A stretch of 64,000 nucleotides of DNA, taken from NCBI RefSeq assembly GCF_037042905.1, contig NC_087250.1:25546001-25610000 (forward strand). The letters run 5' to 3'. Under the pieces are notes generated by a model. That model was not told the DNA's origin. It saw only the letters and a program-made list of their open reading frames with translations, and did no database searches. The position numbers and the translations under genes are program-made. Of this stretch, positions 14,228-44,763 are shown piece after piece; within the stretch, counting starts at the first letter, position 1; each line of letters begins with the position of its first letter. This DNA is from Lytechinus pictus. Its lineage: Eukaryota.

Positions 14228-15756
14228 TCAGCGTTTAACTTTGTCATTGTACATATGAATTGCATTGGGTACAAACGATTGTCTAAATCGTGAACGGTTA
14301 CTCTTGGGTGCACGGAGGCGAATGCCTGAGCGGTTGAATCCAAAGAAACTGTGCAATGGATGCGATGAATCATTCATGATTGTATGTATTTTTAGTAACA
14401 CACGTTTTTCATACAAAGTACTAATGGGGGGAAGATCCGAGTGAATCAGTCTCTGTGCGATTTTCCTTGGTCTTTCGATTTTTTTCAGATTTTTATTTGA
14501 GAGATTACCAAAAATGCACACACACAAAAAAAATTGAAGTGAGGATACTCTGAATAAGAGATTGGTAGAAAAAAACCAAGATCCTATTATCCACATGAAA
14601 CTCCTTGAGTTTCCTCAAAAAGTGTAACCTTTGACATGCCTTGCCTGCTACAATTTGTGAGTTCTTGTTCCAATTCAGTTTATCATCAATAGTGGTTCCA
14701 AGGTACTTAAATTCAGAAACTTGTTCAATCATTTCATCGTGAATAAGTAATGGTTCATGGGGTTGAGAAGAACGACGAAAATCAAATACCTTTTCCTTAG
14801 TCTTGTTTACGTTAAGAACTAGGTGATGTTGATCACACCAGTTTACAAATTGATCAACTTCCCTAAAATATGACCTACTGTCTCCTAGGATGAAACCAGT
14901 GATGACCGTGTCATCGGCATATTTAATTATTGCACAATTATCGTGGGTGACATTACAATCGCTTGTATAGAGAGAAAAGAGAGTTGGTGAAATTACACAG
15001 CCTTGAGGAGCACCTAAATTTAAACATTTGGTGACAGAATTCAAATTATTGCACTTAACCCATTGTGGTCTGTCTATAAGGAAATTGTAAATAATTCTGA
15101 CAATACAAGGTGAGACATTCATATTTAGTAGTTTATCTATCAGTATGTGAGGTAGTATGGTATTAAAGGCGCTTGAAAAATCTATAAAAACAGACCTGAC
15201 ATAGGACTTGGGAATATCTAAATGCTGATACACGCCCTGAAGAAAGACTAACACTGCGTCTTCGACGCCTCTATTGTTCTGATTTGCAAACTGAGCTTTG
15301 TCAAAAATATGGTTTCTTAGACGCCTTAACAATAAACGTTCAAAACATTTCATAGGATTGCATGTGACAGCAACTGGTCTGTACTGGTTCAATTCACTAG
15401 GGTTTTTAATCTTAGAAACTGGGATAATAATCGAAGATTTCCAAAGACGAGGAATCCTACCAGTACTCATGATCAATTGGTAAATACATGTAAAATCATA
15501 AGCAAGTTGTTGACTACAGTTATTTAAAACTTTGTTGGAAATGTGATCTGGCCCAGATGCCTTATTTACATTTGTCTTTGCAAATACATTCCGTACTTCA
15601 TGTTCACTGATACAAATATCCTCTCTTGGGTCAAGCATTACATCAGACAACCTATCAGTAATTGCATTATTCTGAATTGAAAAATCATGTACATCAAATC
15701 GGGCGTAAAATTCACTTAGACTATCAACAAAATCCTGATTACAATCTATTAATCTC
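14228..15756 (-). pseudogene. RT half of Rex1/Babar-like LINE A
   Basis: ORF track 14505-15857 carries the RT motifs, with a frameshifted C-terminus to 14228. The first 34 or so residues of that ORF come from the tail of element B. Confidence 0.85.
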
Positions 15757-18700
15757 ATAAGGTTCATAAGGTTCATAAGGTAGTATTTATTGTCCAGATA
15801 AATAAATAAGTGGAAATTTGCATTTTTACATGGTATTGAACATACATAACATAGCATAGAAAATGAACATATTTACAGAAAATCAAACAATCACATATAG
15901 TCAATTATGATATACACGTGCAAATGCTACCCACTGGGTAGCATTTGAAAAAAATACTGTTATTGACATTAAAATTAAGATTGAAATGGAAATCTGAACT
16001 GAAAGGTAGATATCGGATATTGAATTGAAATTACATTAGAATTGTAATAAATCAGTACTGTAAATCTTCACAGCATTGTCCACTTGTAATTGTTATTGTT
16101 ATCAGTATTTACATATTATTTTTATTTTCAATATTGTTGTTTTTAAGAATTAACATCAACTACCGGACAAGGTATATTTACATTATTAGGCATATCATTA
16201 TTCTTATACAATCCCTTCCTCATTCAGCATTCGGATTGAGCTTGGCACGAATGAGTTTAAGAACCTATTTGTTCGACAACGTGCTGACCGTAGTCTATTA
16301 CCAGATCTCATCCTTTCGTAGTTTACATTCAATGGGTGATCATTATTGTATAGTATCTCTTTTGCCTGTTCAAGTATTCTGTTTCGACATACATCAGTGA
16401 GGTTTAGGTCGTGTCCTGTTATTTTTTATGCTTGTCTGACCATTCTACTTAGTATATTCAGATCTTTTTTGCGACAGCTTGTGAACCAAACCACACAATC
16501 AAATATGAGGATGCTTTCAATAAGTGATCTATAGAATAAAACCATTATGGTGCGGTCAACATGGAATATATATTGTATTGCCTTCTTGTAAATTGAATTG
16601 CATTGATCTCCCCATTTTAATCCATCTTCAATAATGGTACCTAAGTATTTGAACTTATGAACTATTTCAATTTCCTCTTCATTGATTCTAACACGACAAT
16701 CACTTGGTTCTACTTGTTTATTATTTCTAAAGTCAAATATCATTTCTTTGGTTTTTGTTGCATTGAGATCTAAGAAATTGTCATTACACCAGTCGGTAAA
16801 CCATTTTACACAGTTTAGATACTCAAGTTCACATTCCTTAATTAGACCAACTATAACTGTGTCATCTGCGTATTTGAGAATAGAGACATTTTGAGAAAGG
16901 TAACGACAGTCATTGGTATATAGAACACATAGGATTGCAGAGAGCACACAGCCCTGGGGTGAACCTGTATTCGTTACTATGGGATTGCTCAAAGCATCTT
17001 GGACGCGCACGCGCTGGATTCTATTCCGAAGAAAGTCAGTTAGCCATAAAATTAGGGACGGTTTCACATCCAGACATTTCAGCTTCTCGACAAGTCGATG
17101 GGGTTGAATAGTGTTAAATGCGGACGAAAAGTCAACAAACAAAGTGCGAGCGTACGATTTATTTTCATCTGTGTGCTTGCAGAGAAGATGTGTCAAATAA
17201 AGGATCGCATCTTGAACGGACTTCTTTGGCTGATAGGCGTACTGATGGGGGTCAACCAGGTGCTTTATGGGTTGGAGAATATACTTCAGTATAATTCGTT
17301 CTAGGCACTTCATCGCTATTGAAGTCAATGCTACTGGACGATAGTCGTTATGTTCAGAGGGGCGGGGCTTTTTGGCTACAGGGATAACAATAGAAGACTT
17401 CCAGCAAAGGGGTATCACTTGTTTATCTAACGGAACAAAACGCAAAACGGCAATGCCAGTTCTCTCGAGCAATTACGTAGTACCTTTTCGGTAATTAGAT
17501 CGGGCCCGTATGCCTTCCTTGGATTGATTCTATTGAATTGGGCTAATACATCTCTTTCTTTAATCTTAATAGTATCATCTCGAGAGTCAGTTAATTCAGC
17601 TATCTGTCCGTCTATTATATCACTGAAGTCATGGGTATCAAACCGTCCGTAGAACCTATTAAGTTCATTTGCAATCTTAAAAGGGTCATCAACATTCGCG
17701 AGTGATTGATCTCTTTTGGGAACATAGTCGGTCATTGATTGCAAACACTGCCACGCTGCTCGCGGATTATTATTTTGAAAGTGATTTTCGAGCTTTCTTC
17801 GGTAGTCTCGTTTCGCTCTGTTTATTTCCTGACGCAGTCTAGTGTGAAACGACTTTACGGTTAGTCGATCACCGGCATCGAATGCTTCCTTTCTTGCTTT
17901 GATGATTCCTTTAATATCTTTAGTAATCCAGGGTTTAATATTTGGGTACACCTTAATCGTTTTACTTTGTATATGTAAATCCTGACAAAAGACGATGTAA
18001 TCATTAACTGCACTTGTAATTCCGTTTATGTCGTCCGAAGCTTCGAAGAACACATTCCAATCAGTTATTTGAAAGCATGTTTTGAGGTTGTCAATTGTTT
18101 CATTATTCCACATTTGTACCACTCGTTTCTGTACTTTTTGCGATTTAAGTTTCTGCCGATATTTTGGTAGCAAGTGTATTACGTTATGATCCGAAAGTCC
18201 TATTCCAGGTCGAATTACGGTCTTATAGGAATCTTTAACAGAACAATAACATCTATCCAATATATTCCCTTCTCGTGTCGGCTTGTCAATTACTTGACAA
18301 TAGTTCGGCAACATAGCTTCCAGTCTACAATGATTAAAATCACCGAGTACAATTTTGGGGGAGTCCGGTGATTCAGCTTCCATCTCCCTAACTTTATTTT
18401 GAATAAGCTGTTCTGCTTCATTTTGATTAGCATCGGGAGCAATGTAGACCAGAAATAAATGAACTTGGGGAAATTCTCTGGGCAAGTAGAACGGGCGAAG
18501 TGACACACATAGCATTTCCAGATTTTCGTTGCATGTAGAATTTTTAATTGTAAAGTTCGTACACCATCTATCATTTACATAGAGACATATCCCACCACCG
18601 CGTCTTTTCTTGGTTTGTTGAAATGAACGATCCAATCTCGCTACATTAAAACCATCTATTCGTATACAATCGTCATTAATGTCAGGGTTTAGCCATGTCT

Positions 18701-19211
18701 CTGTAAAACATATTATACTCGAATTCCGGAAATCATTAATGTACCTTGTTAGAGCTTGAATCTCATCCAGTTTATTGCACAGTGAACGAACATTGCTTAG
18801 TGTAATTGCAGGTAATGGGGGTCTGTTTCCCCTTTTCCGAATTCTGTTGCGGATCCCTCCGCGTTTCCCTCTCCGCTTTTGCTGAGGTATGCCATTATCA
18901 TCCTCGCGGGTCGGTGTCCATTCTGGGAGATTCAATGGGCTAGACTTGGACGTTGTGTAGTCGGCTAGGTAATATAAGTATTATCGCGAATACTTGATAG
19001 TAGTAGTTTGTCCGGGTGATGCATATACATGACTATTTTGTGGTAGAACGATTACGAAAAGTAGCACAAAACATACCCAGATGCACGAGATGGATTTGAC
19101 GAACATGATGACATAAACATAACTTGAAAGACAAATCACAAAATCCGGAAAATAAGCGACAAAAACAGAGACAAAATACCATGTAACAGGTCGCCGTAGT
19201 ACAGCGCCCTC
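15757..19211 (-). mobile_element. Full-length Rex1/Babar-like LINE 'B' nested in LINE A
   Basis: ATG at 19106 with an early in-frame stop, APE ORF 18935-17427, RT ORF 17472-16426 (frameshift). AATAAA + (CCTTATGAA)n tail at 15757-15791. GAG is shared at both junctions. Confidence 0.88.
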
Positions 19212-20593
19212 TTCTTAGTGTCCTTATAACCAGTCATGATCTGCATTTGCTGCCATGCAGCTCTTTGATTATTTTCATTAAAGTTCCTTTCCATTGTATT
19301 GTTGTACATCACTTTTGCTCTAGTAACCTGTTTTTTAATTTCCTTCTGTATTGTTTTGACACGTGACTTCTGTCCAGAAAGAAAAGCTTCCCGTTTCTGA
19401 CTCAACAACACCTTCAGTTCCTTCGTCACCCATGGTTTGCTATTTGGATACGACTTAAATTCTTTATGAGGAACCGAAGATTCACAACAAAAATTGATAT
19501 ACCCAGATATAACTGTAGCTGCTTCATCTACCGACTCAGATGAATTAAAAAAAGTGTCCCAATCTGTGCAATCGAAGCTCGCACGCAGTTTTTCGGTAGC
19601 GTCGGAGCTCCATACACGCTGTTTCCTAGCAACTGGTTTGCTCCTTTTCAGCTTTTGGCGATACGATGGTAGAAGCAGTATGTTGTTATGGTCGGAGTTA
19701 CCCAGCTGTGGACAAGTCTTCGATGTGAAAGCATTCGGAATATTACAATAGCATAAATCAAAAGTAGCATCATTACGTGTAGGCTGATGAACAAATTGAT
19801 TATATGTAGGAAGCACTTCATCTAATTTGCATTGATTAAAGTCCCCCAGAATGATCTTAGCCGAGTCTGGTGACAGTGTCTCAAGTTCGTTGACCTTTGA
19901 AGATATTATTCTACTGGCGATATCAACATTAGCATGTGGTGGAATGTATGTTACAAGTACGAAAATCCTATTAATCTCCCTTGGCAAGTAAAAAGGTCTA
20001 AGTCCAACAGCTAGCAACTCGTAGTCAGGTGTACATACTCCCTCTTTCACCGTCCAGTTATTGCACCACTTATTATTGACAAACATACACACACCTCCTC
20101 CACGGGATTTACCTGATTCCGAAGTACGATCACCTCTGACAACCTCGTAATCTCCAATGTCCAAGGCGCTGTCCGGAATGTTCTCATGGAGCCATGTTTC
20201 CGTGAAGCATAGTAAGCATGAATCCCTATACTCGTGCAGAAAACGGACATTTGCACGCAGTTCATCTAATTTGTTGGGTAGGGATCTGACATTACCGAAA
20301 ACGATAAAAGGTAATGGTGGTTTCACTCCTCTCTTCCTCACTCGTTGTCGTACCCCTCCCTTCTTGCCTCTCTTCCGGGGTAGAATTTCACGTGGGAAAT
20401 CAGCGAAGCCCCGTGGTTTGCTACCCGGGGACTGGGCGGTCCGGTAGAACAACAGTTCGGTATGCGTGTAAGAAATAGATCCTTGAGCATTTTGGGCGTG
20501 GCCGTATGAGTACACAGTCATCAAAAGTCGTGAAATCAGTAAAATTGTTAAAAAGATCCGGATCATTAATGAAGCAACACACGAAGAAGGCAT
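19212..20593 (-). pseudogene. APE endonuclease half of Rex1/Babar-like LINE A
   Basis: Motifs RKRGKKGG, GNVRSL, FTETWL, GDFN, SDH. The ORF is cut at TGYKDTKK by the 5' end of element B. Confidence 0.85.
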
Positions 20594-20709
20594 GATGGTA
20601 CATTGACAGTGACGAAAAACGAATAAATATACGATGAAATCAGAGAAATTAAATCCAAAAGATCAGAACAGAAAAAGCCAGTGGTGGTCGCCACAGTGCA
20701 GCGCCCTCT

Positions 20710-21108
20710 AATATCACGTTATCTTCCATCACTCATCGGTACAATGAGACACAAGATGACTACTTAAAAGTTGAGAGCGCTAACCGCCAGCTGAAACTTC
20801 TAGCCAATGAGAGGAAGGCTGACTACGTAGACAATGACAACGTTGATCATTCGATGCATCTCGCCGGTGATGGCGTTCGCCTAAATAGACGCGGTGTTGT
20901 AATCTTCGCCACTAATCTCATCAACTCGTTGAGAAAGCAAATACCCAAGCCACAAGTTGAAGGTCGTTCAACGGATTTTCACTACACTCAACGCACAATA
21001 ACAAATATAGCTCCTCACAATCGGGTGTTCCCACGCGATTGGATGGACTCATTCAGGGCAACAAAAAAGGACTCTCTCGATACGGCAAGAAGACTACTGA
21101 ACAAATAA
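20710..21108 (+). pseudogene. CR1/L2 ORF1 C-terminal half of SGNH esterase
   Basis: Translates as NITLSSITHR...YVDND...DGVRLNRRG (degenerate block V) and rejoins the 5266-6284 frame. Confidence 0.8.
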
Positions 21109-22024
21109 TAAGTCTTACTGAACGTTGTCTGACGCAATGCAAAGTGGGTCTACCATCTTCTGCCTATTTACCGTCCTTGACCACTCGTGAGGGTCATGCC
21201 AACAAACTTGAACTAGAAAATGACTCAGTGTCTCATGATATGACTTTTAAAAAGGATTGTGCTTCTCAGCTAAATTATTTTAAATGTCTTAAATGCGCAC
21301 ACATCAATGTCAGAAGCTTGATTCCTAAAATTGATGAAATAAGGTACCTTATTACTGAGCTAAAGTTAGATATCCTATGCGTTAGTGAATCTTGGCTGAA
21401 AGAAAACATTTCTGACAAGGAAATATTCACTGAGAATTACGATTTTTTGTCAGACGTGACAGAACATCGAAACGTGGGGATGGAGTTTGTTTATATGCTA
21501 AGGAACATTTACATTGCAAAGATAGAAGTGATGTTGTCACTAAATTTGATATCGAAGCAGTGTTAGTCGAAATGTCTTTGAGAAAGACTGATTTATTTGT
21601 CTGATGTATTAACAGACCACCTGATGCCCCGGTTGAATTTTACTCTGAATTACATAATCTCTTAGAACATATGGAATCTGAAGATAAAGAGCTTATCATT
21701 CTAGGCGATTTTAACAATGATTACCAAGTCAATGATTCTCTTGTTGACAATCCATTATATGTCATTGAATGTTTATTTTCTCTGTCACAAATTGTTACGA
21801 TACCTACACGAATCACTCCAACCTCCTCAAAATGTATTGACTTAATTTTTACGACTATACCGGAACAACATTTACTTTCCGATGTCGCCAAGATTGCCCT
21901 CAGTGATCATTATTTGATATTTACATGTATTGATCTCAAACCAGATGAACCTCTACATAAACTGGCCAAGTACAGAGACTTTAAGAAATTCGACGAATCC
22001 CAATTTCTTGAAGATATTCGTAAA

Positions 22025-24480
22025 TGTAGATCTAGATTGGTTGGCGGAGAGGAAAAGGGACGTCTTATCCTTTGCCAATTGTGCAACTTTTCTCCGCTAA
22101 CAAGGATACTTTTAACTTTTATTTGTGCTCATCCTGTTTTGTATAAGTCTTGTCATCATATTAGTGCGTATATTTTCTTCAAAACGTATCACCATCTTGT
22201 GAAACTTTTGAGCTATAATTTTACTGAAGTATGCAGCCCATCGCCATTTTGCTCCACGGCCTTCTACTTTGCTCGCCATCCAGTGGTTCAGCGGTCATGA
22301 TACCAGTACTGTCCGCTGCCTGTTCAATCGCGGCCTTTATACGGTTTGCTCTACCAGAATTGCCATTAACGCATTGGTATGACCTTGACAGCGACCTTGC
22401 CAAACGACTTGCACCCCTCCATCATGACCTATCTTCGGGGGCTACCCCCCCCCTCGAAAGCAGGATATTGTTTTTCGATTTTGTTGCAGATTTTGAACCA
22501 AAAAGTAGCACATCGTCTTTTGAAAGACCCCCCAAAACCCTCAATCAAGTGAAAAGAATGAAGAATAGATTAAGGAAGAGAGCCTTCGCTAAAGACGCCA
22601 CGGAAGATGATCGCCGGAATTTCTACGATGCGCTCCATACATACGACCATCTTCGCGGTTTAGACAGACGCCAGGAACGAATGCGAACTACTGCCCGGGA
22701 AGAAAAGCACTTCAATTCAATTTTTTGGGACTATTGTAAAAGGCTCGTCAACGGATCGTTATATAGTGATACTCCAAGGCCTTCTTTTTCACAGGAATTC
22801 GCCGACGAATACTTCACTTCCCGCTACCAATCGCCTTCAGAAATTATAACTTCAGATCTTAATTGGATTCCAGATACAGCTTGCTCCAGTACACAGGCAA
22901 CCCCACCCCAATTTGACACTACTCCAATTCGTCCATTAATTGCGAAGAATGTTTTACGGAAGAAGAGTTCGCATTCCTCACCTGAACCTGATGGACTGTA
23001 CTATGGTATGTTAAAGAAATTACCTTGCACGCACCACTTTTTAGCTACCCTCTACACCAAGGTGATGCAAACTGGTATTCCTCCTCCTAATTGGTCTAAA
23101 AGTAAAGTTACACTTATATACAAATCTGGCGATACTTCTCAGCCAGGCAAATTTAGGATGATTTCACTGTCAAATGTCGTAGGAAAAATCTATCACCAGA
23201 TATAAGCCGAAAGATTTGAAAATTTTATGATAGATAATAATATATTTGATTGTAACTTACAAAAGGCTTTTCTGAAAGGTATAAATGGATGTACTGAACA
23301 TAATTTAGTGATGCATGAAGTACTATCCCATGCGAAAAGTAAATCTAGGACAGTACATGTGACATGGTTCGATCTGGCCGATGCTTTTGGATCGGTTAGT
23401 CACGATCTTATTCATTACATGTTACAAAGATATAAATTTCCTACTTCTATTCAGTTATACATGAAGACTTTGTACAGCTCACTTTCTGGAAGAGTAATTA
23501 CTAAAGATTGGATTTCAAACGAGTTCAAGTTTCGGAAGGGCATTTTTCAGGGGGACCCACTCTCTCCTCTAATTTTCATTATGTGTTTCGATCCAATAAT
23601 TCAATTTTTGAAGGTTAATTCGGCTTATGGTTAAGATTTGAGTGGAAAACGGATCATAATGACACCTTTTGCCGATGATTTTTGCCTGATATCTAATAAT
23701 AAAAGAACACATCAACGGTTATTAAACCAGATAGACAACCACATCAAATCAATGGGACTATCTTTAAAACCCTCAAAATGCCGTTCTCTTTCTCTTACAT
23801 CTGGAAAGTTTAACGAACTGGAGTTCATGGTTGGGGAAGAGCAAGTGTCTTCGATTGGGAATGACATTCATAAATTTCTCGGGTCTGTAATAACCAAAAA
23901 CCTTGACTCTTCTGACGTTCATGCGTATATTTCAAATAAACTTGAATCTCGTTTGAAAAATATAGATGATTCTTTGATACGTAACGAATATAAACTAAAG
24001 GTTTACTCTCGATACTTGTTGCCATCACTACGCTTTGATCTTACCGTAAATGATATTACCCACTCTCATTGTCTAGCCTTGGATTCTGTTTCTAACGTTT
24101 ATCTTAAGAAATGGTGTGGTATGCCCCCCTCAGCAACGTTGGCTTTTGTACATATGCCAAATGGTCTAAACATTCCGAATATCTCAGATGTATATAGATA
24201 ATGTCATACACTTTCATACGTAACTATGAGAGAACAGGGTGATGAAAATGTAAACCACTGTTTGGATACTCGACTGGAACGAGAGAAGAAATGGGTTAGG
24301 AAGAATTCAACTATTGTTAAATCGGATACTGTATATTCTCAAATCGAACAAAATAGCTTGAAAGGGAAGAAATCTGAAGCAAAAAATCTGCTCACTCAAG
24401 AAGTAAGTGAGATTTGGCATTCACATGTAAAGAATCTACTAGTTCAAGGTCGGTTTCTGGATCTCTTGTCAACAGAAGAC
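22025..24480 (+). mobile_element. R2/NeSL/Hero-group (RLE-clade) LINE RT fragment, 3'-deleted
   Basis: Motifs QKAFLKGINGCTEH, WFDLADAFGSVSH, GIFQGDPLSP, FADD, LKPSKCRSL, GLNIP, with in-frame stops. No CCHC or RLE domain is visible. Confidence 0.75.
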
Positions 24481-26446
24481 AATTGTGTCATCTGTTCTAT
24501 CCGTGAAAGTAAAAAGAATTATGTTGATGATATCTCGAACAAATTTAAGAATAATGCTCGTAAGCTCTGGAAGAATATTATTATGGCAACCGGTAACTCA
24601 AAATTTAGTAACTCTATTGATCATGATCTATCACCCAAATTATTCAATGACTACTTTCCTAATGTTGGTCGCAAAATTGCAAATTCTTTTCATGAAAAAA
24701 AAAACCTTTTTGGAGAAACCCCGACTGTACTCATAGATTTATTTTTGATACGATACCAGACAGTACAGTTTTTTTTTTATTCGAAATTACTTCGGATAGC
24801 TGCGCCACTCATACAAACATCCTTGACATCTGTCTTTAATTATTCGCTCAGAAACGGAATCGTTTTTGATGAATGGAAATACTCAAGAGTTACTCCCATC
24901 TATAAAGGTAAAGGACCCAAGATGCGTGTTCCAACTACAGACCAATATCTGTCGTGTGTCATATAGCTTAGTTAATAGAAAAAATAATCCAATTGAATTT
25001 GCACCAGTATTTAATCTCAAATGAACTTATCACTATTGACCAATCTGCGTTTTTGAAATCACATTCTACGGTAACATGCCTCCATCGCGTCATCGATGAT
25101 TGATACGATGCATTGAATAATCATGATATGATTGGGGCATGTTTCCTTGATATATCAAAATGTTTCGACAGTATTAACCATGAATTATTATTGTTTGAAT
25201 TGAAGAAATATGGTATTATTAATGTTGAATTCAAATGGTTCAAAAAGTTATTTGTCTAACAGAAGACAATCTGTCCGATGTCATGGTCTTCAATCTCAAC
25301 CGATCGATCTTGATATTGGAATTCCACAAGGGGGAGTCATTGGCCCTGATCTTTTTTCTTATTTTTATCAATGACATAGTCCAAAGTGTTTCTAAGGGGA
25401 CTTGTAACATATTTGCTGATGACGTTATTATTTATTGTACTGATTCATCACTGAACAAGATTGAAGAATACAAAATTGTATAAATAGTATCAACGCCTGG
25501 TATACTGAAAACCGTCAGATAAATGCTTCAAAGACTGATGCCATGCTAATCTCTTCGCGTAAATCAAGAAATAGAGGAGAGCTTAGAGTTTAACTTGATG
25601 GAATTGAATTGAAACAAGTAAACAGTGTTAGATATTTAAGTGTTGAAGTTGACTGTTATCTTTTGTGGAAAAATCATGTCAAACAACTCTGTAGATCATT
25701 ATCGTTTAAAGTACATGCACTGAGGCGTTTAAGTTCTATACTAAATATAAATTGTTGAATACATTGTACAAATCTACTATACAGCCATGCATTGACTATG
25801 GTAGTTCAGTTTGGGGTAATTGCTCTGAAAAAAAAAAAACTTATCCATAAACTTCAAAAAAGAGCAGCCCGCATTATTACCAAACAATTCGATTTTTCTG
25901 TAAGTAGTGCCAATCTATTCAAGGAATTAAAGTGGCAGCCTTTTGAAAAAAGACGTGACTATTTTCTTCGTATATTAGCATATCAATGCATTTATGGGCT
26001 TGCACCTTCTAGGTTGTGTAATGAAATTGAAATGTATTTTGACAGACATGGTATCAATACTAGAAATCATAACTCCCTAAACGCAGTCTTGCCAAAACCT
26101 AATAAGGACATTCTTAAACTCTCATCCAAATATGCTGCTATAATAGTCTGGCATTCTTTGCCGACATCAACTCAAAATATCCGATCCCTGCAATCTTTTA
26201 AACGTATTTATAAAGCAAGTTTTTTTAACCAATGTCATTTTTATTCTTTTATCAATTGTTACCTTACCTCCCGAATATTATTTTAGTCTCATCTCTACAT
26301 ATTATTTTTAGTGAATTATTGATATATACATTGTTTTAACTTTTAATTCTCTTAGATTACTATATTATATTTTGTAGTTTTATATTATGAATTCCCTAGT
26401 TACTTTGTTAAATTGTATTTGTTATTTTTAATCTATCTGATGAATT

Positions 26447-27208: not shown

Positions 27209-27249
<41 letters not shown>

Positions 27250-27358
27250 CTATATATATTGTAAAGAAATGGATGAAGAGAACAATGGTAGGCGTAGCTT
27301 AAATCAAGGTTCCCCAGAGCTATCTACCCTTTTGGAAAAATTGGTGATGCCGAAAAAA

Positions 27359-27430
27359 TGTCTCTGCCGGGAATCGAACCCGGGCCCCCAGCTTTGAACG
27401 CCGGTGCCTTAACCACTAGACCACAGAGAC
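27359..27430 (-). tRNA. tRNA-like gene, anticodon TCA (copy 1)
   Basis: Identical to copy 3. Full cloverleaf followed by a T6 terminator. Confidence 0.7.
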
Positions 27431-27473
27431 GGGTTCGTGGCTAGGGCGACCCCGATCCGATTGACCGTCAGAT

Positions 27474-28212
27474 CATGGACCTATGAAAAGATGGACGATT
27501 AACGCGAGCATTTCTTTGACCCAATGATAGTCACCGTCACCTGGTTATGCGCATCTTAATGAGAACATACAGGTGTTGTAACAATAGCAATTACCATGAC
27601 TACCAAGGGTATCTGATCACTCAAAGACGGAACAGTTTCCCGGTCTTGACTTTTGTTGGCTGATCCCCTGTTTCAGTATGTGCCTTTCAGTCAATTTGCT
27701 TCATATATGGATCAGCAAACTTGAGAAGCAGACGATTTTTATGATATAAAATATGATATTATTCGATCCGCTAACTACCGCTCACACATAAGGACCTCAA
27801 TAACATTGAAAGATACACGATCTACACATGTTATGTGCCACGTATATCTGGAATATTATGGAGAAACTTGGGAAAATTGAATTTTAAATGGTAAACAATC
27901 AATCACAATATTGCCTCTATATTAAAATATGCAGACATTTCCCCAAATAAAACACATGGAACTAAGATTAGCAAAGGTAAACAAAAACTGCACATCGATT
28001 ATCCATTATTTCATTGATTTTCTATCAACTGCGCATATAATTTGTGAAATATAAATGTCCAATAACGAACTAATTCAGTCCCTTCTCACGGTGACGATCT
28101 TAGGACCAAAGAAGACTAGTATGAAGAGAATGTTATTCAGATGACAATTACCGTCACCTGTTTGTGAATTCATTATCTAAGCGATGAATGTCCATCTCTT
28201 CATAGGTCCATG
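27474..28212. mobile_element. P-element-like MITE, 7-bp TSD
   Basis: TIR CATGGACCTATGAA. GTCAGAT is duplicated at 27467-27473 and 28213-28219. Confidence 0.85.
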
Positions 28213-28509
28213 GTCAGATAGACAGATTTTCGACACTATACCAATTATAATTTCGTTTGTCGGGTGAAGGTGGGTTTCGAACAATGACAAGCCGACATGC
28301 TTCAGCTGGATCAAAGCTATTGCTTTGATACAGTACACGTATAGGAGAAAGTATACAAATGTGTGAAGTTACACATGTACAACAGCTTTGGCAACTCTTT
28401 TATTAAATATTGTAAAGAAATGGATGAAGAGAACAATGGTAGGCGTAGCTTAAATCAAGGTTCCCCAGAGCTATCTACCCTTTTGGAAAAATTGGTGATG
28501 CCGAAAAAA

Positions 28510-28581
28510 TGTCTCTGCCGGGAATCGAACCCGGGCCCCCAGCTTTGAACGCCGGTGCCTTAACCACTAGACCACAGAGAC
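28510..28581 (-). tRNA. tRNA-like gene, anticodon TCA (copy 2)
   Basis: Identical to copies 1 and 3. Confidence 0.7.
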
Positions 28582-29073
28582 GGGTTAGTGGCTAGGGCGA
28601 CCCCGATCCGATTGACCGTCAGATAGACAGATTTTCGACACTATACCAATTATAATTTCGTTTGTCGGGTGAAGGTGGGTTTCGAACAATGACAAGCCGC
28701 CATGCTTCAGCTGGATCAAAGCTGGATCCCGGCAGAGACATTTTTTCGGCATCACCAATTTTTCCAAAAGGGTAGATAGCTCTGGGGAACCTTGATTTAA
28801 GCTACGCCTACCATTGTTCTCTTCATCCATTTCTTTACAATATTTAATAAAAGAGTTGCCAAAGCTGTTGTACATGTATAACTTCACACATTTGTATTTT
28901 TTCTCCCATACGTGTACTGTATCAAAGCAATAGCTTTGATCCAGCTGAAGCATGGCGGCTTGTCATTGTTCGAAACCCACCTTCACCCGACAAACGAAAT
29001 TATAATTGGTATAGTGTCGAAAATCTGTCTATCTGACGGTCAATCGGATCGGGGTCGCCCTAGCCACTAACCC

Positions 29074-29145
29074 GTCTCTGTGGTCTAGTGGTTAAGGCAC
29101 CGGCGTTCAAAGCTGGGGGCCCGGGTTCGATTCCCGGCAGAGACA
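29074..29145 (+). tRNA. tRNA-like gene, anticodon TCA (copy 3)
   Basis: Acceptor GTCTCTG/CAGAGAC, D arm GTCT/AGGC with A box, anticodon arm CCGGC-GTTCAAA-GCTGG, T arm CCGGG-TTCGATT-CCCGG, discriminator A, then TTTTTT. Confidence 0.7.
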
Positions 29146-29294
29146 TTTTTTCGGCATCACCAATTTTTCCAAAAGGGTAGATAGCTCTGGGGAACCTTGA
29201 TTTAAGCTACGCCTACCATTGTTCTCTTCATCCATTTCTTTACAATATTTAATAAAAGAGTTGCCAAAGCTGTTGTACATGTAGAACTTCACAC

Positions 29295-29343
<49 letters not shown>

Positions 29344-30155: not shown

Positions 30156-32260
30156 TTAAATTCGCCAGTTTTGGTCTGTGATACATGAAAAGTACCGGAA
30201 TAAAGACTTTCTTTTAATGAAGATCCAACGACCACCGAGGTGTTTTTTTTTATAAATCAATAATTTATTTATTTTCTTGCCTTCTACATGTATGGAAGCT
30301 GGTATGTTTGCTAAATTTAGACATTTTACTACAAAATTCAAATAACAAAAAATAAAAAAAATTGGAGAAGTTCCATTGCTAGATATTCGCCGTTTAATAG
30401 AAGTTTACCCTTAAAGGAATACCTTCCCAGATATTAAGAGGGCGTTTTGGAAATGAGTACGCGAACGGCAACGGTGCGCATTGACACCAACGTCATACGA
30501 CGTTAAAGCCATGTTCTGAATGCTCGAACTCTGACCATTTGTAAGTAATTACACGCTTCGACTGCTGTTTGCAGATCTTGGTTCCACCTACTCGGCTGTG
30601 TGAAGTGACGTCAACAGATTTTGGGGGCTAGCACCGATGTAACAAGAATGTGTACCATGTGTGCATTTGCTTCCGTCAATGGCTGAACATTCGATTTTCT
30701 GGTGATCATCGTAATGGACATGGTGGCGAGTATGGCACGTAACATTAATGTCAAACAGCGCCCTCTTAAAGCCAAGGAACGCTTACCTTTCAATCTCACC
30801 TTTTTTTTGCCCTCCAGTATAAACTTATGAATTAATTATCTTAAATCACGAAATATCTAATAGTTTTTAGCTAAAAAAAAAAACCCGTTAGTTATTATTT
30901 TACTTGATTTTCAGAACTTTTCAGGTCCTCGGAAACGATTTTTAGATATTGGTGCTGAAGTATTTGTTTAGGGGGTTGTCATCAGTAGAAAATACTAGCA
31001 AACAATTGAATAAACAATCGTTACTGCTCCCACATCTCCGTCATAACTTTTTTTTTTTTTTTTTTTTTGGGGGGGGGGTTGTCAACATGATTTAAAGGGG
31101 TGCTGCCCATATGTGGTAAATTATATACGCCGCATTCTCACTTCCCATGGATATGGAACGTTTTGGTGTGGGGGGGGGGGGGGGTGAGGGGTCATGATGG
31201 ATTGAATGATTGTAATCGTAATGTATAATTCAGTTACCTTGTATTTTCTTTTTACCACTGGCGAACTTGTTATATTTTGGACTATAAACAAATAAATCAA
31301 ATTTTATGTTCCTTACGTACTTCACAGTCTTCTATTTTTTTTCTATTTCATGATTAAAACAGGTGTTTGGGAGGGGGTGGGATTTCAGCAGAAAAGTGTG
31401 GCTGACAATACGGAAATTCACATTCATATGGTCATTCTTTTTCACGTTTATTTAAAAAATGAGGAGCGTGTGCAGAAACAATCCCAAGCCCTGGTTATAA
31501 TTTTAGATCATACAGTGTTTACCTACAGGTCGTGTTTCCCTCAAGCAAATTACCCGAGAGTTGGCACTGTCATTGGATGACCTGCCCGACACTGCTCACC
31601 CATTAATATATATTTTTTTCGTCATGTTCAAGCAAGGGTCTCACGTTCAATCGATAGTTTTTGCATACTTTTATGAGTTATAGATGAACGAAATAAACCA
31701 ATTTAGAGGTGAAGACCTGATAAGATATACCAAAAACGATCAAGTAGGGTGTAGATTATTTCTGCCATTTATTACCCTTCATTTGAATGTCATATTCCAT
31801 TGCTGCATACATTTCATTTTCCCATACCTAGGAATATAAAAATGTATGTTTGAAGAGTAATGAAAACGCCACCTTTTACGATTGTTTGTTGGAACGGATA
31901 AAAACCAATGTTTGGTACTGCCTTGCATGTATCATATTATATATTTTTATCATGAATTATCGATCGCAAAACGTTCGAATTGTCAATATTAAATAATGAA
32001 TGAAATACCTCAAGGAAATGCTAGGTTTTTTCTTGTTTACTCTGTTATTATTATTATTTTTTTAATGAAAACATTCTTTTAATTGCCATGCATGAAACAG
32101 GGGAAAAGGATTCTGTTCAAAAGAAGTAATATCCCCCTTTCTTTTCAATTAAAATTTGTGTAACTAATTTCATTGCTTGCTAATTAATTATATGTCTAGT
32201 AGTGTATGAATGACTGATAATTCTTAGTTCAATTTTTCATTCATTTATCCTTCCAGAAAT

Positions 32261-32564
32261 ATGTCTTCTCATGGAGGTATTACCGATGAGCTTCTCTGTA
32301 AGCTAGCTGAACACATCGAGACAGGTGAACAGATGGAGGCCTTGGCACGAACGCTAGGATTCAACACTGCAGCCATCAATAGATACATAGAAACTAGCAG
32401 ACTGGAAGGACGGGTCACGTGTAAGGGAACACGTGACATGATGTTTGATTGGAGACAGAGGGTGGATCTATCCAATCAGCATCCTAGGCTGAAACAAGCT
32501 CTCATTGATGCTAGACTAATCATGCTTGCTGAAACTTATCTCAATGACACATTAACAACCCAAG
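32261..32564 (+). CDS. NLR gene exon: Death domain
   Basis: Acceptor TTCCAG at 32256, then ITDELLCKLAEHI...LARTLGF...MMFDWRQ...LKQAL, then donor CAAG|GTGAGT (phase 1). Confidence 0.85.
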
Positions 32565-33082
32565 GTGAGTATATTACTCAGGTCAGATATATTCTAAACG
32601 AATCAAAAATGAAATAATTATCTTTGTTTTGTTGCTTTTATGAATAATGAGTGTCAACCATGCACGCTAACTCTATCCGTAAAATCCTTATCTTTAAGGA
32701 GCATCAAATTATCATTTTTTTTTTAAATTGACAATAATGTACATTTTTCATTGTCATCTGATAAAGATGAACTTAGAGCATAATAAAAAAACCACAAATA
32801 ATCTTATTACTTATGAATATGAATTCGACATACTTTCACAAAATATAATGACCTTTTAATACGCAGTGTATATTACTCATCTCAAAGATAATTTTGGCCA
32901 TCTACTACTGAGTGTAAATATTTTGCATCAAGTTTCAATAAACATTTTTTTTTTCATTTTTCCTTTCTCGGGGAATTGTCTCTTTGAATGTATTTTTAAG
33001 ATGTTCGTTGTTCATATTTAATAACTTTGTACTATCATATTGAAAAGTAAAAAAAAAAAAAACCTGCACTAGTTTCTCATAT

Positions 33083-33889
33083 GAAGAGCTCACTTGCAAA
33101 AGGGGTTAGGTCCATTTTTCATCAAATTTGATTTTTTGGTCTCAATGTATAGATTTTTAGTAGCTCTATTAGATGATACCAAAGAAAAGTTGAAATTATC
33201 ATTAAAAAGTTATCTAAAATGGCAAATAATTTTTTTTTCAAAAGGGGTTAGGGCCATTTCAGTTTGTTGAAAAAAGGGCTAGGTCCACGCAGTATTTTTT
33301 GGAAAAGAATATTTAAAAAAATATGAAGACAGGTAGATTTCCTTTGTACCCAATTTGATGTTCTCATGGTAGGGTATCATGACAATTTAGTTTCGCATAA
33401 GAATATTGCAATATGGGAGAATAAAAAAATGATTTTCTTGGAGTGGACCTAACCCCTTTTGAAAACAAACTATTCTGAAGAGCTAATTTTTCAAAAGGGG
33501 TTAGGTCCATTGTTCATAATTTTTTAAGGTTTTCTGTCTCAAAACCTCTAAATTTTAAGTCATTCTGAAGAAAACAACGAAAATTTGAAATTCACATGAA
33601 AACGTGAATAAAAGTGGCAAAGAAAAATCACTTTTTTTTAATCAAAAGAGATTGGATTCATTTCAGTTTAGTTGCAAAAAGGGTTAGGTCCACGATGATA
33701 ATTTTTAAAAGAATATATAGAAAAAAAAGTGAAGACAGGTAGATTTCTTTTATAGCCAATTTTATGTTCACATGATAGGGTAGTACATCATGAAAATTTA
33801 GTTTCTCATAAGAGTATTGCAGTAAGTGAGAATAAAAATATGTTTTCCTCGGAATAGTGGACCTAACCCCTTTTGCAACTAAACTCTTC
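33083..33889. mobile_element. Sola-like MITE in NLR intron
   Basis: ATAT|GAAGAG...CTCTTC|ATAT, with repeated AAAAGGGGTTAGGTCCA motifs in both orientations. Confidence 0.75.
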
Positions 33890-34005
33890 ATATATCAAGT
33901 CGATTATGTCTCCTTTTTCGAATCGTCTATATTTGTCTTATTTGAAAGGGCGGATATCACGTGGCTGAACTCATTTTGCTCAATGTATTTGTTATATCAT
34001 TCCAG

Positions 34006-35573
34006 ATATATACAGTGAGAAGATTTCGGAATCTCTGACTGTTCGAAAATGTCGCACAATCTTGGAGGACAAATATTCGAATCAGCTATGTAAAATTCAA
34101 ATGAAACCTTGGGATAAAGACGATTATGCAGAGTTTGAAGATATGCACACCGTTGTTACCATAGTAAAAAAGGATGCTCGTGGGAGAGATATTACGGAAA
34201 AACAAATACTTCAAGGCTCTGTTGGGAAAATATTTTCAGCCAAAGTAAATGGAAAGTTTCCATCTCGAATCCTTATTTCGGCTCCGGCTGGACGAGGAAA
34301 GACGACAGCTGTTGCTAAGATGGCACACAACTGGGTTCACAGAGAGGAAGGGTCAGGATTAGAAGACTTGCCACTTCTGTTCGTAGTCAAGTTTCGAAAC
34401 ACAAGCCACAGTACATCGATTGGAGAAGCCATCATATCGCAACTCCTGAGTGATGTTGATGATCTGACGCCAGAGGGCCTAGAGAGTTTCATCAGGGAGC
34501 ATCAGGGAATCTGTCACATTGTACTAGATGGGCTCGATGAGTATGCTGGTATCTCTTCCTCGAGTAACATCATGAGGATTCTCCGCTGGGAAATGTTTCA
34601 ACAATGTCGAGTTCTTGTAACAACTCGACCTCACCTAGAAGACGTTTTCAGTAAAGAAGATCTACCAAGGGTGTACACAAAGATGGAAATCGAAGGTTTC
34701 TCAAGAGAGAGCACACGCGATTACATTGACATGTTCTTTACTTCAGTTCAGAAACCTATGAAAGCAAATGGTCTGAAATGTTACCTCGCTGAACATCCAC
34801 TTATTGAGGAACTAGTCAAAACACCCCTATTTTGCCTCATGGTTTGTCACCTATGGTCTGAAGATCTACTCCACCGTGAGATTTCAACCCAGACAGCAAT
34901 ACTCGACAAAGTAAACGTTTTTTTAATGCACCACGCAAATGAACGAACTGATGGATTATTCATGCCTGAAACTCTAGACGCAATAATCCACAAACTGGGT
35001 AAAGTTGCTCTTACTGGTCTGCTTAATGATTCTAAGAAGCTAGTATTTACCCCTCGTGATTTTCAGAAGATTCCCTCTGCCCTTGATATGGCTTGTGAGC
35101 TAGGAATAGTGTCTAAGACAACTGTATCAACTGCTCGCCTTTCTCGAACTAACAAAACAAACTCTACTACTATAGAATTTTATCACAAACTTGCCCAAGA
35201 ACACGCAGCTGGAAAGTTCCTCGCTGATAAAACAAGCCATTTGCAGCTGAAGTTGAAGATCTCTCAGTTAGACCGAGTGCTGCGAAAGATTAAAAGAAAC
35301 ATTGGTGAATATGAAAATCTTATTCGTTTTGCTGCTGGTTCAAAGAACAGCCTCTGTATTCGAATAATGGAGACGCTTCTGACAAATAAATATTTATCTG
35401 AGAGTGAGCGTTATCGTATTCTCCTAGATTGCTCGTCCGAGTCAGGGGTTAGCGATGGGAATGTGTCATTACTGGTGCAAAGGTGTGTGACGTCACAAAG
35501 TATTCTTTTGAGGTCACCAACAATCTACACTGCTGTTGGGATGCAAAATCTTCCAAGTGAGCTGAAACAGAAG
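34006..35573 (+). CDS. NLR gene exon: NACHT NTPase + winged helix/HD2
   Basis: Phase-1 acceptor at 34005 joins the Death exon in frame. Walker A APAGRGKTT, Walker B IVLDGLDE, sensor VLVTTRP, PLF, FYHKLAQEH. Donor AAG|GTATTC (phase 0). Confidence 0.92.
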
Positions 35574-35629
35574 GTATTCTAATGTCAGATAATAATTTCT
35601 AGAGAAATAGGATAATGTTATACTTCATT

Positions 35630-35825
35630 CACTGTAAAAAAAAAATGAAGTGCTAAATTACGGTGCTTGCATAGTGACTGCACTACAATTGCTAATATTC
35701 TAGTTTAAATTTAAACTAGTGTTGACTTTCTACTTTAAATTAAAACTAGAAAATCAACACTCGTCGTGCAGTCACTATACAAGCACCGTAAATGTTGAAT
35801 TAGCACTAATTTTTTTTTTACAGTG
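35630..35825. mobile_element. Palindromic CACTG-type (EnSpm-like) MITE
   Basis: CACTGTAAAAA...TTTTTACAGTG, with a nearly fully palindromic interior. Confidence 0.7.
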
Positions 35826-36143
35826 TAAAGGTCTATTTTATACCGTCAATAGTATAATGTTAACCGATTTAATCATTTTAGAATGAAAACAAATCAATTA
35901 ATTAATCCATGGGGCAAAATGGAAACATATTGAAAATGACAAGTAAAAAAAAAGGCATTTAAAGTCCGTTTTACTTAATTTGTGTTTATTGTAGGACATA
36001 ATCCTATGATATAAACAAAAAATTAACGGTACTCCATTTCCAGAAAGTATAGGTTATTGAAGCATCTAATACCAGTGATAATAGATAATTCGTCTGTGTC
36101 TCCCTTCTCTACTTACCATTCCCCCTTTCATGTTTATTTACAG

Positions 36144-36688
36144 GTTCTTAGTGTGAAATTCGAGAATTCTGTTCTGACAACCGTTGTGACAGAGGGACTA
36201 TGGAGATGCCTTAAATCATTTACGATGTTAAGTTCTCTCACCATCTCAGACTCATCTATCGATTTCCCTCCATCTCCTACTGAGCTACCATCCATCAGAA
36301 GTCTATCAGTTGAGGGAGTGACGTCACAGTGCTATAAAGGTCTGATCTCAACGCTCCCTGGTTTGACAGACATGATATATATCGATGTAACTATCGATGA
36401 TTCAGAGGAGGACATAGCCCATATCGTATCTGTTCTCCTTCGGACAGGGGGACAGAAGCTCGAACGAATAATTATTCGTGACACTCCGTCATCATTCCCG
36501 TCACGGAAGAGACCTTTGTGGAGTGAGACAGAGGGAGGACTGAGGCTGCTATTCGACAAATCTGATTATTCGGACACTGCCACGAACATGCTCATATTGC
36601 AAAGCGCTAGACATATGGAAAAGAAAGGTCATGTTGAAGTCTTAGAGTCGTTTGCATTTTTGGCACAATTGGCTCGACTTAAACTAGA
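36144..36688 (+). CDS. NLR gene exon: degenerate LRR region
   Basis: Acceptor TTACAG at 36143 (phase 0). LRR-like LSSLTI, LPSIRSLSV, LPGLTDM, LERIII. Donor GA|GTGAGT (phase 2). Confidence 0.8.
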
Positions 36689-37431
36689 GTGAGTTGATAT
36701 TTTTAGACAATAAAACATATTGTACGTGGTTGCGTTCTTAGATAAAAATTGAATCAGCTACAAAGATTAGGCAAATTAAAATCCACCACAATTCTATCAA
36801 TGCAACATGTACAGTTTATAGAAAGTTGTATGCCCTTCTTATTTTGTTTTCCTACTCTCAATCAATAATCATTTCCATTTGAATTTGCAACTGCGTCCAC
36901 AATTTTCAAATGAACGATTGTCCTAAAGAGCCTAGAGAAAAAGTAAAGCAATTAAAATAATATTGATAATTTTTATTACGCCTATACTAAATTATTGTCA
37001 TCACTTACTTTTCTTTTCGTTTCTTTTTTATTACACATTGATGACGTTATGTAAATCGTAATTTTCTTTAGTACTAACTTACATAACGTATTGCAAGAAA
37101 AAAAAACCGTGGACCTTACAAGGTAAAAAAACGAATGCTGTATTATACTGCATTATCATGACGATTGAATCATTTGACCACAGGGTTTTATTACGTTCCC
37201 GAAGTATATGAATTGGAGGCATAACTGGCCATTTCCCCTTGATATACATGCTAGGGATCTATTAAAAGGGTAATCCATTGACATGGAAGATTTCTTTTAG
37301 ACATTTTTTGTTAACAAAAAATAAAAACGGATTTAGAGATCATAAGGCCATCGATATGTTTCCGACAACACGTTTTTTATTTTTCCCTCAAAATGATATG
37401 TCATAATATAGCATTTTCCTCTATTATATAG

Positions 37432-40859: not shown

Positions 40860-41443
40860 TTAGGCAGCCAAGGATTGTAAAGCGATCCGGAAGTCATTTA
40901 TGAGCAGATCGCTACCACTATCAGATAAGTGTACCCCGTCTCGAAAGTACTGCCTGTGGTCCTGTATGCTTATGTTGTGATGCAGATAAGATGCTCGAAA
41001 CATTCTCCTTACTTTTCCCCGGGCATGTTTGTTAATAGTCTTACGGCAGTTGTTCAACGCCAATTGGGAGTGCGGACCATCTGATCTGCCGTAGTAAAAT
41101 AGCCTTGGTACGATTTCAGAAAAGCAGATGTGGCTGTTCGGAAGCTGCTGTCTGATAGACAGGAGAGTCTCGTCGACCGCCTGTCTGCAGTTCTTCACTG
41201 GGTGTCTACCGATGTTATTGGTGCCCGCATGAAGAATCACCACGTCCGGGGTAGCGTGATGCTTTAGCAGAGACTGTACAGACTTGGCCAGGTCATGCAT
41301 TTCAAGGCCGCCCCTCCCGAACCACCGGACTTGGCTCCCTGGCTGAACCTCAAGGTTTTGGAGACCTGTCGCCTTGGCCCTTTCTCCGGCCCTTCGCACT
41401 AGGCTGTCTCCTACGATCCATATCCTCCGGTTGCCTGTTGGTC
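40860..41443 (-). CDS. SGNH/GDSL hydrolase ORF of the Ngaro element
   Basis: IWIVGDSL (upstream of the ORF-track start), FGRGG, HAGTNN, DGVH. Preceded by a splice acceptor. Confidence 0.85.
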
Positions 41444-41886
41444 CTGCATGACAAAGAAATTATACTATCACGAGCATCATATATCTTTCGACTCTTGGGT
41501 GAATCCCCCCACAATGCGTAATTGTAATTGCTACCGCTTCAATATTTGTTTACTTCCTATATCGTGCTTTGTCCATTTTCTTCCATGGTTATCCTTATAT
41601 GTGCTACCTATTTTTTCATTTTTATTTATTTCTTATTATTATTATCTTTTTTTTTTTTTTTTTTAAATATGTATTAATAGATTCATAATTCACTTCCTTG
41701 TGTTGTATTATCCGTTAAACTCAATGGGATACGTCCTACATTAAATGACAGACTTTTTACCCTTCCTTCTTCCTGGTCGTAACATAGTTAGGCTTCCCTA
41801 TAGTCAAGTGCTTATACCTCATACTTGTACAAACCAAAATCATAAGCTTGTTTGCATCAACATAATGATAGAAATCTCAGTTCCCC

Positions 41887-42800
41887 TCAAATTCTCACAT
41901 ATGTTTTAAACGCACTGCTCCGCCATCTGCCCATTTCTTGAAGCTGTTCTTCTGTCGCTCCTCCAATGGCCGCTGTAGTGGCGGCCACAATTCGGAAGGA
42001 ATGGGTCCCATATTTCTCTGCTTCAAAGCCGGAGACTCCCAAGACTCTCCTCAACACAGCTCTAAACTGATACCTAGTTAGCGGTGACCCATTTGCATGG
42101 CAGAAGAGGGGGCCTTGCATCACTGGCCTCATTTTCAGATATCTAACCATCGCCCCTACTGGACAGCTGCTGTTCAATCCATTTCGCTTTATCTTCAGAG
42201 TTGTTGAAGTGCCATATTGATCTGTCTTTGAGAATCGAATGGTAACCAACAGGTAAGCTTCTTTAGAGCTTTGGAAAACACTTATGTCTTGGTCAAGGAG
42301 GGTCCTGTCTTCGGTCCCACCTGTGCCGTCTACCGTGAACTCACCAACCCGCAGCATTCCGAAAAAGGCTAACAGAAATGATGCCTGAAACATGACGGCT
42401 TCATAATGGGTTACACAGATGAGACAGAGGTTAGGTAAAATATTGACAAGGACATCCCATGTTATAGGCCTGCGCCAATCTTTCCTCTTCCGGCCTCGCC
42501 TGCTTCCTTCAATCATCTTCCTGATCAGAAAATGGGTGGTCGGGTCAAGCCAGCTGTATATCTTATGCAAGTATGATAGCGCTGCCACATGAAGTGTTAT
42601 AGTTGATGGTGCTCTACCACTCAGTGACATATGCGCGATAAATGACATGACCTGCTGGGGAGTAGCCGGCCAAGATGAATCCAGCATGCTCGCCAGTCGG
42701 AATCGCCGGAACGAGTCGATAGCTCTCTGGTACGAGGTCTTGGTCCCCTTAGTTGTAGCATCTGAAATAAGCCGGCATACCTCCTGCTCTATATCCGCTA
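41887..42800 (-). CDS. Tyrosine recombinase of the Ngaro element
   Basis: Motifs FGMLRVGE, SKTDQ, HSFRI, GRWRSSAFKTY. The frame is open upstream of Met 42687 and overlaps the end of pol. Confidence 0.92.
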
Positions 42801-44657: not shown

Positions 44658-44763
44658 AGGGAAATTGACCAGGAGATGTGTAGTTGTTCTTCCCGTATCC
44701 TGTCAGTCTATAGCTCGAGGGGTTATGGGCCCCTTGCTTCGGAGAACCCCCACCGACCACATA
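44425..44763 (-). pseudogene. Ngaro gag C-terminus (Cys/His zinc fingers)
   Basis: CYELN...CNRQQCRFLHKCVACGIPGHGKVKC. Rejoins as GELWLMYVV once the insertion is removed. Confidence 0.85.

Follow-up and report, generated by a model that had tools for sequence, protein, structure and literature searches.

The window (that is, the whole stretch of 64,000 nucleotides of the Lytechinus pictus genome that was analysed; NCBI RefSeq assembly GCF_037042905.1, contig NC_087250.1, forward-strand positions 25,546,001 to 25,610,000) contains three identical 72-nt tRNA-like copies at 27359–27430 (−), 28510–28581 (−) and 29074–29145 (+), each with a T6 run directly 3′ of it and each assigned the anticodon TCA by ARAGORN (3/3), as a preliminary description of this DNA had reported. 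The period of the repeat in which they lie was measured as 405 bp, the unit length given in that description, and the longest open frame in the 405-nt unit has 86 codons. The copies belong to two head-to-head arms of one insertion rather than to a single tandem run; the left arm is split by a nested 739-bp element, and the insertion has one outer end at each of the two sites at which the 3′ ends of this family lie (fixed 3′ ends 1 and 2). The features, in window coordinates, are as follows.

27209–27259, no strand: (TA)n target tract, left
27260–29297: entire insertion of the 405-bp repeat, with head-to-head arms of about 1.8 units (left) and about 1.4 units (right)
27260–28723, − strand: left arm, broken on its 5′ side at unit nt 264; its outer end is untailed and lies at fixed 3′ end 1
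27359–27430, − strand: tRNA-like copy 1 (TCA); T6 at 27353–27358
27474–28212: nested 739-bp element of a different family, bounded by terminal inverted repeats; 7-bp target duplication at 27467–27473 and 28213–28219
28510–28581, − strand: tRNA-like copy 2 (TCA); T6 at 28504–28509
28724–28726, no strand: inversion junction between the arms
28727–29297, + strand: right arm; begins at tRNA nt 59; outer end at fixed 3′ end 2, with tail
28727–28740, + strand: fourth tRNA fragment (tRNA nt 59–72)
28954–29073, + strand: degenerate inverted copy of unit nt 1–140 without the anticodon arm; in the predicted fold, the 5′ side of a long rod
29074–29145, + strand: tRNA-like copy 3 (TCA); A and B boxes, 7-bp acceptor stem, 4-nt variable loop, G32
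29146–29151, + strand: T6 run, Pol III terminator-like; a T5 run is next, at unit nt 91–95
29245–29297, + strand: tail of about 50 nt that separates fixed 3′ end 1 from fixed 3′ end 2
29298–29340, no strand: (TA)n target tract, right

The nested 739-bp element was considered as a part of the tRNA repeat and rejected, as it forms a separate family (28 of 30 of its loci are without a tRNA call). It is a non-autonomous DNA element, which we take to be P-element-like, with terminal inverted repeats that start with CAT and with 7-bp duplications in five of six other loci checked; a first look gave 651 candidates, the top copies being 99% alike, and another copy of it lies inside the tRNA repeat at a different locus (L004). 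Elsewhere in the window, Death-domain and NACHT exons of an NLR-like gene (32228–36692, +) lie about 3 kb from the insertion, and a tyrosine-recombinase retrotransposon-like cluster (40860–45220, −), presumably Ngaro/DIRS-like, contains GDSL/SGNH hydrolase, integrase-like and RT frames together with a 15-bp minisatellite, further occurrences of which lie at 51.5, 53.8 and 57.7 kb. Decayed non-LTR retrotransposon frames, endonuclease/RT-like by eye, occupy 10354–11855, 14228–20662, 20961–26286 and 57588–59685.

An abundant family that inserts like a Penelope-like element

The 405-bp unit is a young, very abundant non-coding family. Exact matching across the genome returned 1,798 matches to the stem pattern with a free loop and 2,205 to the T-arm pattern (the latter including a few host tRNAs), and TCA is present in 98 of the first 100 stem-pattern matches listed, 42 of the 100 being from one array. 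Copies are spread over many contigs; some are fragments, others form short tandems or head-to-head pairs, and the longest arrays reach about 44 units. One array (G000:C2:8866126 onward; loci L272 and L273) comprises about 44 units of exactly 406 bp with 0.12% internal divergence; it begins at fixed 3′ end 1 beside (TA)n, and its units carry a one-base anticodon-arm change outside the listed loop bases and two private flank variants. At another locus (L234, about 1460–1540), a diverged copy has a different tRNA-like 5′ part and no antisense arm, and is possibly a further old subfamily or a 5′-truncated copy. Near-identical unit sequence is present in sequencing runs under four organism labels, and contigs from two of these four have no anticodon change among the matches listed. 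Contigs of a presumed-RNA run and of a metatranscriptome, which by their nature cannot show expression or ends, span the unit and extend beyond the tRNA ends.

The ends of the repeat were compared in 90 insertions of which both ends could be seen (matches below 90% identity, spans shorter than 60 nt and spans near locus ends being omitted), most of the loci having been picked because they contain the tRNA. In this set, two sites some 50 nt from each other (unit nt 165–185 and 215–235) account for 110 of the 128 3′ ends, and a microsatellite adjoins 111 of the 128; 38 of the 90 insertions are head-to-head and none is tail-to-tail, and one tailed and one untailed end are found in 27 of 37 head-to-head insertions. 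The outer 5′ ends are scattered and most copies include sequence upstream of the tRNA. A SINE would start at its tRNA head, whereas here the tRNA is internal and only 2 of 52 outer 5′ ends lie at +1. Among family members, 5′ truncation, partial tandems and adjacent inverted copies are present; repeat lengths and inverted arms differ from copy to copy, and there are neither fixed LTR ends nor target duplications.

Insertions of Penelope-like elements (PLEs) are described as having partial tandems, an inverted 5′-truncated copy, a (TA)n bias and a tail of 30–40 bp that is frequently at one end only (PMC8557442). This tail has been shown to correspond to the interval between two internal positions at which the RT can start, in a process in which both strands are cut and extended and for which the hammerhead is dispensable in vitro (PMC11167929). 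Given its two fixed 3′ ends, scattered 5′ ends, inversions and microsatellite targets, the 405-bp repeat reads as a PLE-type passenger, that is, it inserts like a non-autonomous Penelope-like element. Partial tandems, an inverted 5′-truncated arm, an optional one-end tail, (TA)n targeting and the lack of an ORF are features that it has in common with PLE insertions (Neptune and Naiad) and with MRC1 and similar non-autonomous families of Chlamys, as these are described (PMC8557442; PMC11167929). Unlike those PLEs, it has an internal full-length tRNA-like gene with a terminator, its tail is about 50 nt long, and it shows no detected similarity to an autonomous partner in comparison with Neptune-type ends.

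Intact ORFs with RT and C-terminal GIY-YIG (that is, Neptune-type PLEs) are present in the genome. Two Neptune-type families have two end sites, about 50–55 nt apart, that abut (TA)n, and in an intact Neptune-type family all nine classifiable end pairs, read by eye, combine a tailed with an untailed end. At least five young Neptune-type families (L145, L144, L146, L147 and L137) were seen, with open frames of up to 909–1026 aa and minimal hammerhead-like motifs, different families often being stacked in one (TA)n tract; a full-length PLE copy (L138:63–7345) lies within a tandem tRNA-Ala array. The unit has no significant similarity to the Neptune-type 3′ ends on the sense strand, one of 31 segments compared reached p 0.005 (uncorrected), and a profile of 11 non-redundant Neptune-type ends does not match the unit. 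An 8-nt motif that is shared with one family at a like distance was considered as a hammerhead remnant, but was rejected for want of a profile match.

Of 19 insertions of one Neptune family, 6 have the repeat within about 1.5 kb, as do 3 of 24 insertions of a second by BLAST (4 when a fragment read by eye is counted), as against 1 of 54 background TA tracts by a stricter 100-bp measure. As the two families are alike (p 0.29, computed with 4 of 25 for the second) and the background measure is the stricter one, we take co-location to indicate shared hot spots only, and rejected it as a means of naming the helper. Mobilisation in trans by Penelope-like, probably Neptune-type, retroelements appears likely.

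Within 40 multi-unit insertions, the median divergence is 0.9% between units of one insertion and 2.5% between insertions, and in 17 of the 40 a private variant is present in all covering units and absent from other insertions. Given that the units of an insertion share private variants, one monomer template seems to have been read repeatedly, and each insertion likely copies one monomer more than once, although gene conversion or homogenised source arrays could also produce shared private variants. The 78 inversion breakpoints are uniform across the unit (p 0.95), with four at nt 69–82, and neither nt 73 (the RNase Z end) nor the anticodon loop shows an accumulation of 5′ breakpoints. Seven of about 130 breakpoints lie at +2 to +6 (post hoc, Poisson p 0.004), an excess that comes from samples chosen for tRNA content and from a region that coincides with the apical loop of the predicted rod; at −1 to −16 none was seen by eye, three indel artefacts being set aside. 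The +2 to +6 breaks, which would suit a Pol III start as well as the apical loop, hint at RNAs that may start near the tRNA 5′ end.

The repeat also resembles animal non-LTR retrozymes as these are described (PMC7229834; bioRxiv 10.64898/2026.07.22.740005), in its non-coding, self-paired unit of about 400 nt that occurs as monomers to long arrays, in its co-occurrence with PLEs and in a monomer template that is copied repeatedly. Retrozyme units are self-paired, in tandem, without an ORF and 170–400 nt long, and they are expressed as circular RNA; the 405-nt unit is likewise self-paired, in tandem and without an ORF, at the upper edge of the size range. Unlike retrozymes, it has a tRNA module in place of a type I hammerhead. 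The repeat works like a retrozyme or a non-autonomous PLE and, for want of a hammerhead, is not a member of the retrozymes.

The tRNA-like module, its fold and its anticodon

In the Infernal-type scoring that the preliminary description had proposed, the module reaches 60.9 bits against Rfam RF00005 (E 4e-12, full model), comparable with host tRNA-Glu(CTC) and tRNA-Gly(GCC) genes (59.5 and 65.8 bits with the same model), which were taken from the genome-wide T-arm pattern matches. Its anticodon stem includes one G·U pair and its D stem one U·G pair. The likeness of its D and T arms to tRNA-Glu, noticed at the outset, holds: relative to host tRNA-Glu(CTC) (L245:4897–4968), length and register are the same and nt 8–21 and the T arm are identical (44/72 overall), whereas the acceptor stem and anticodon arm have been replaced and still pair. 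Pattern searches of the genome for further host tRNA-Glu and tRNA-Arg genes gave no matches. Selenocysteine tRNAs (tRNA-Sec) have a long variable arm, a 13-bp acceptor plus T arm, a 6-bp D stem and G73. The module shares the UCA anticodon with eukaryotic tRNA-Sec but has a 7+5 acceptor/T arm, a 4-bp D stem, a 4-nt variable loop, A73 and G32; the Sec features are absent from both the sequence and the Rfam alignment, as the preliminary description had noted for the long variable arm.

The unit is predicted to fold into a rod (−136.6 kcal/mol, z −6.8, equalled by 0 of 100 shuffles; z −7.6 for the core), the 120 nt upstream of the tRNA being a degenerate inverted copy of nt 1–140 in which the anticodon arm is skipped. 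In these predictions, the cloverleaf folds correctly without upstream sequence, with an acceptor pairing probability of 1.00 for the tRNA alone; with 65 nt upstream, the rod is favoured over an enforced cloverleaf by 23 kcal/mol, the pairing probabilities of the acceptor, D and T stems are 0.00, and that of the anticodon stem remains 1.00. Three of four middle-subfamily copies (the TCC group described below) fold into the same masked form; three old decayed copies fold variably, one of them (L288) with a retained cloverleaf in the prediction. In an RNA with the upstream 60–120 nt, the tRNA is predicted to be rod-folded and to escape tRNA processing, with the anticodon hairpin alone exposed. 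For long transcripts, this predicted masking disfavours the RNase P/Z processing signal that had been suggested initially, and nt 73 shows no excess of 5′ breakpoints. The unit has no Rfam hammerhead match and no hammerhead core motif on the sense strand, and a permuted hammerhead was dismissed as no core was found. The tRNA is followed by exactly T6 in 87 of 108 copies, and an encoded CCA tail was found in 0 of 108.

A pattern requiring a non-A at nt 36 matched only 39 copies genome-wide, 30 of which were analysed. TCT marks the most diverged copies (six at 80–90% identity) and TCC a middle group (17 aligned segments, 90–96%), and isolated TCT, TCC or TCG occurs in some young copies; at loci unselected on nt 36, TCA is present in 64 of 64 copies of at least 95% identity and a non-TCA anticodon in 5 of 10 below 95%. 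Flank markers co-segregate with TCC (−45 in 14 of 14 copies, nt 105 in 10 of 12) and with old TCT (nt 83 in 5 of 5), and a tree built without nt 36 places old TCT outside TCC outside TCA (midpoint rooting, low supports). G32 is unchanged across the three subfamilies, in which both boxes and T6 are intact. From these markers, the master lineage likely passed from UCU through UCC to UCA with G32 constant.

Given that the anticodon changed along the master lineage, which a decoding tRNA would not do, UCA is likely a drifting passenger rather than part of a working suppressor. The mobile UGA suppressor put forward in the preliminary description therefore finds no support, nt 36 being T in the oldest copies, C in the middle group and A only in the young ones, with G32 throughout; the free variation of the anticodon loop that was thought to count against it is found in part, in that nt 36 varies by subfamily, while G32 is constant and young copies are near-fixed for TCA. 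Among the features of an opal suppressor, the cloverleaf, A and B boxes and terminator are present, and pyrimidine 32 and a conserved anticodon are absent. No in-frame UGA is present in the intact PLE ORFs that were translated; selenoprotein Naiads are described as relying on SECIS elements (PMC8557442). In older copies, free tRNA sites diverge less than flanks (11.3% versus 13–20% and 5.2% versus 6.5–10%, the sites not being independent). Shared subfamily differences number 0 in 47 free tRNA sites versus 11 and 8 in flanks, too few to demonstrate selection on the tRNA; low D, anticodon and T-arm substitution rates in young copies were fixed by the search patterns and were set aside.

A proposed mechanism and its alternatives

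We propose, with reasonable confidence, that the locus is a head-to-head insertion of a repeat that is mobilised in trans by a PLE, with the tRNA as its Pol III promoter and UCA as a drifting passenger. The TRIMp3 elements Cassandra, Helenus and Ajax are described as likewise non-autonomous and as having an internal small-RNA gene that is the probable Pol III promoter, and Helenus also inflates suppressor-tRNA predictions (tRNA-Sup-CTA) (PMC10886601). Unlike TRIMp3, the repeat lacks LTRs, a PBS/PPT pair and a 4–5 bp target duplication, and has PLE-type ends and an intact cloverleaf. It is the analogy with Cassandra and Helenus that leads us to favour the module as probably the Pol III promoter of the repeat. 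Of the possibilities raised initially, that of a tRNA mimic used by a repeat family is retained, narrowed to a carrier that inserts like a non-autonomous PLE.

In the proposed mechanism, a PLE endonuclease would nick (TA)n and the RT would prime inside the RNA at unit nt ~172 or 222 (100 and 150 nt downstream of the tRNA), and priming on one or both strands may give the head-to-head arms. The RT would then reread a single unit-length template, either by a jump through a tRNA-long terminal redundancy or on a circle; a read-through RNA from +1 to the T6 of the next unit would be terminally redundant, as in Cassandra, and its second tRNA would be masked in the rod. Several points run counter to this proposal: the Neptune-type ends compared gave no convincing match to the unit; T6 and T5 lie directly behind the tRNA, such that a unit-length Pol III RNA would need read-through; the +2 to +6 excess is post hoc; gene conversion or homogenised source arrays could account for the shared variants; TCA is near-fixed in young copies (64/64, as given above); and the supports in the tree are low.

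Some possibility, although a small one, attaches to a Penelope-dependent circular RNA without a ribozyme, in which the captured tRNA would be both Pol III promoter and cut-and-ligate site and the antisense arm would hide the tRNA and show the anticodon hairpin; if true, such a ribozyme-free retrozyme would be to PLEs what SINEs and TRIMp3 are to LINEs and LTR elements, a class that our literature searches did not turn up. We also consider it doubtful that the tRNA is a functionless relic, that is, a captured tRNA or SINE head that was duplicated into a fold-back by an old PLE-type inversion and kept only through rod pairing, the templates being Pol II read-through RNAs. Such an origin would agree with the degenerate inverted copy in the upstream 120 nt, terminators that block Pol III, largely uniform breakpoints and shared differences too few for selection, but sits poorly with the lower divergence of free (if not independent) tRNA sites than of flanks in older copies, with boxes and T6 that are intact across subfamilies and with the excess of breaks near +1.

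It is rather unlikely that the module is a processing site that replaced the hammerhead. In that case host nucleases would make a single cut in every unit of a multimeric transcript, either at the anticodon hairpin left exposed or at +1 to +6 in the apical loop, and the unit-length pieces would be circularised by a tRNA ligase, as retrozymes are by RtcB. We know of no host enzyme for cutting such a loop, and no pile-up of breakpoints is seen at nt 69–82 or in the anticodon loop. The lack of a hammerhead core on the sense strand, the repeatedly read monomer template, the clustering of breaks in the apical loop and an antisense copy that spares exactly the anticodon arm (in young copies and in three of the four middle-subfamily copies folded) are all compatible with a processing site, as is the match to retrozyme size and self-pairing as described (PMC7229834), but hammerhead cleavage is reported to be dispensable for PLE insertion in vitro (PMC11167929).

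It strikes us as very improbable that the short Pol III transcript is processed into a tRNA that decodes UGA, such that a selfish repeat would have spread a weak opal suppressor: although the cloverleaf scores like a host tRNA, folds correctly without upstream sequence, has its own terminator and is present in about 1,800 copies (with TCA in nearly all of those first listed, many from one array), it has G32, an anticodon that moved from TCT through TCC to TCA, no Sec features and no encoded CCA, and the intact PLE ORFs offer it no in-frame UGA. So many active suppressor genes would, moreover, be costly to the host. An ordinary tRNA-headed SINE, Helenus-type TRIM, inverted-repeat DNA transposon or satellite is scarcely credible and largely refuted, as the tRNA-derived boxes, the terminal direct repeats of 1.2-unit copies, the apparent inverted ends and the long arrays are outweighed by an internal tRNA with almost no outer 5′ ends at +1, varying repeat lengths and inverted arms without fixed LTR ends or target duplications, and dispersal on many contigs with fixed 3′ ends.

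We found no tRNA-bearing non-autonomous PLE among the papers listed by our literature searches, and a catalogued entry may exist in Repbase or Dfam. For annotation, the repeat is a warning: about 2,000 ‘tRNA-SeC/Sup(TCA)’ calls in this genome come from its copies, the scores of which resemble those of genuine tRNAs. With regard to PLE biology, the proposed model would mean that PLEs can carry a tRNA-derived passenger, as LINEs do with SINEs and LTR elements with TRIMp3, and a 405-nt template with two mapped priming sites may provide a compact substrate with which to study the cis requirements of the PLE RT and how this enzyme makes tandems without a hammerhead.
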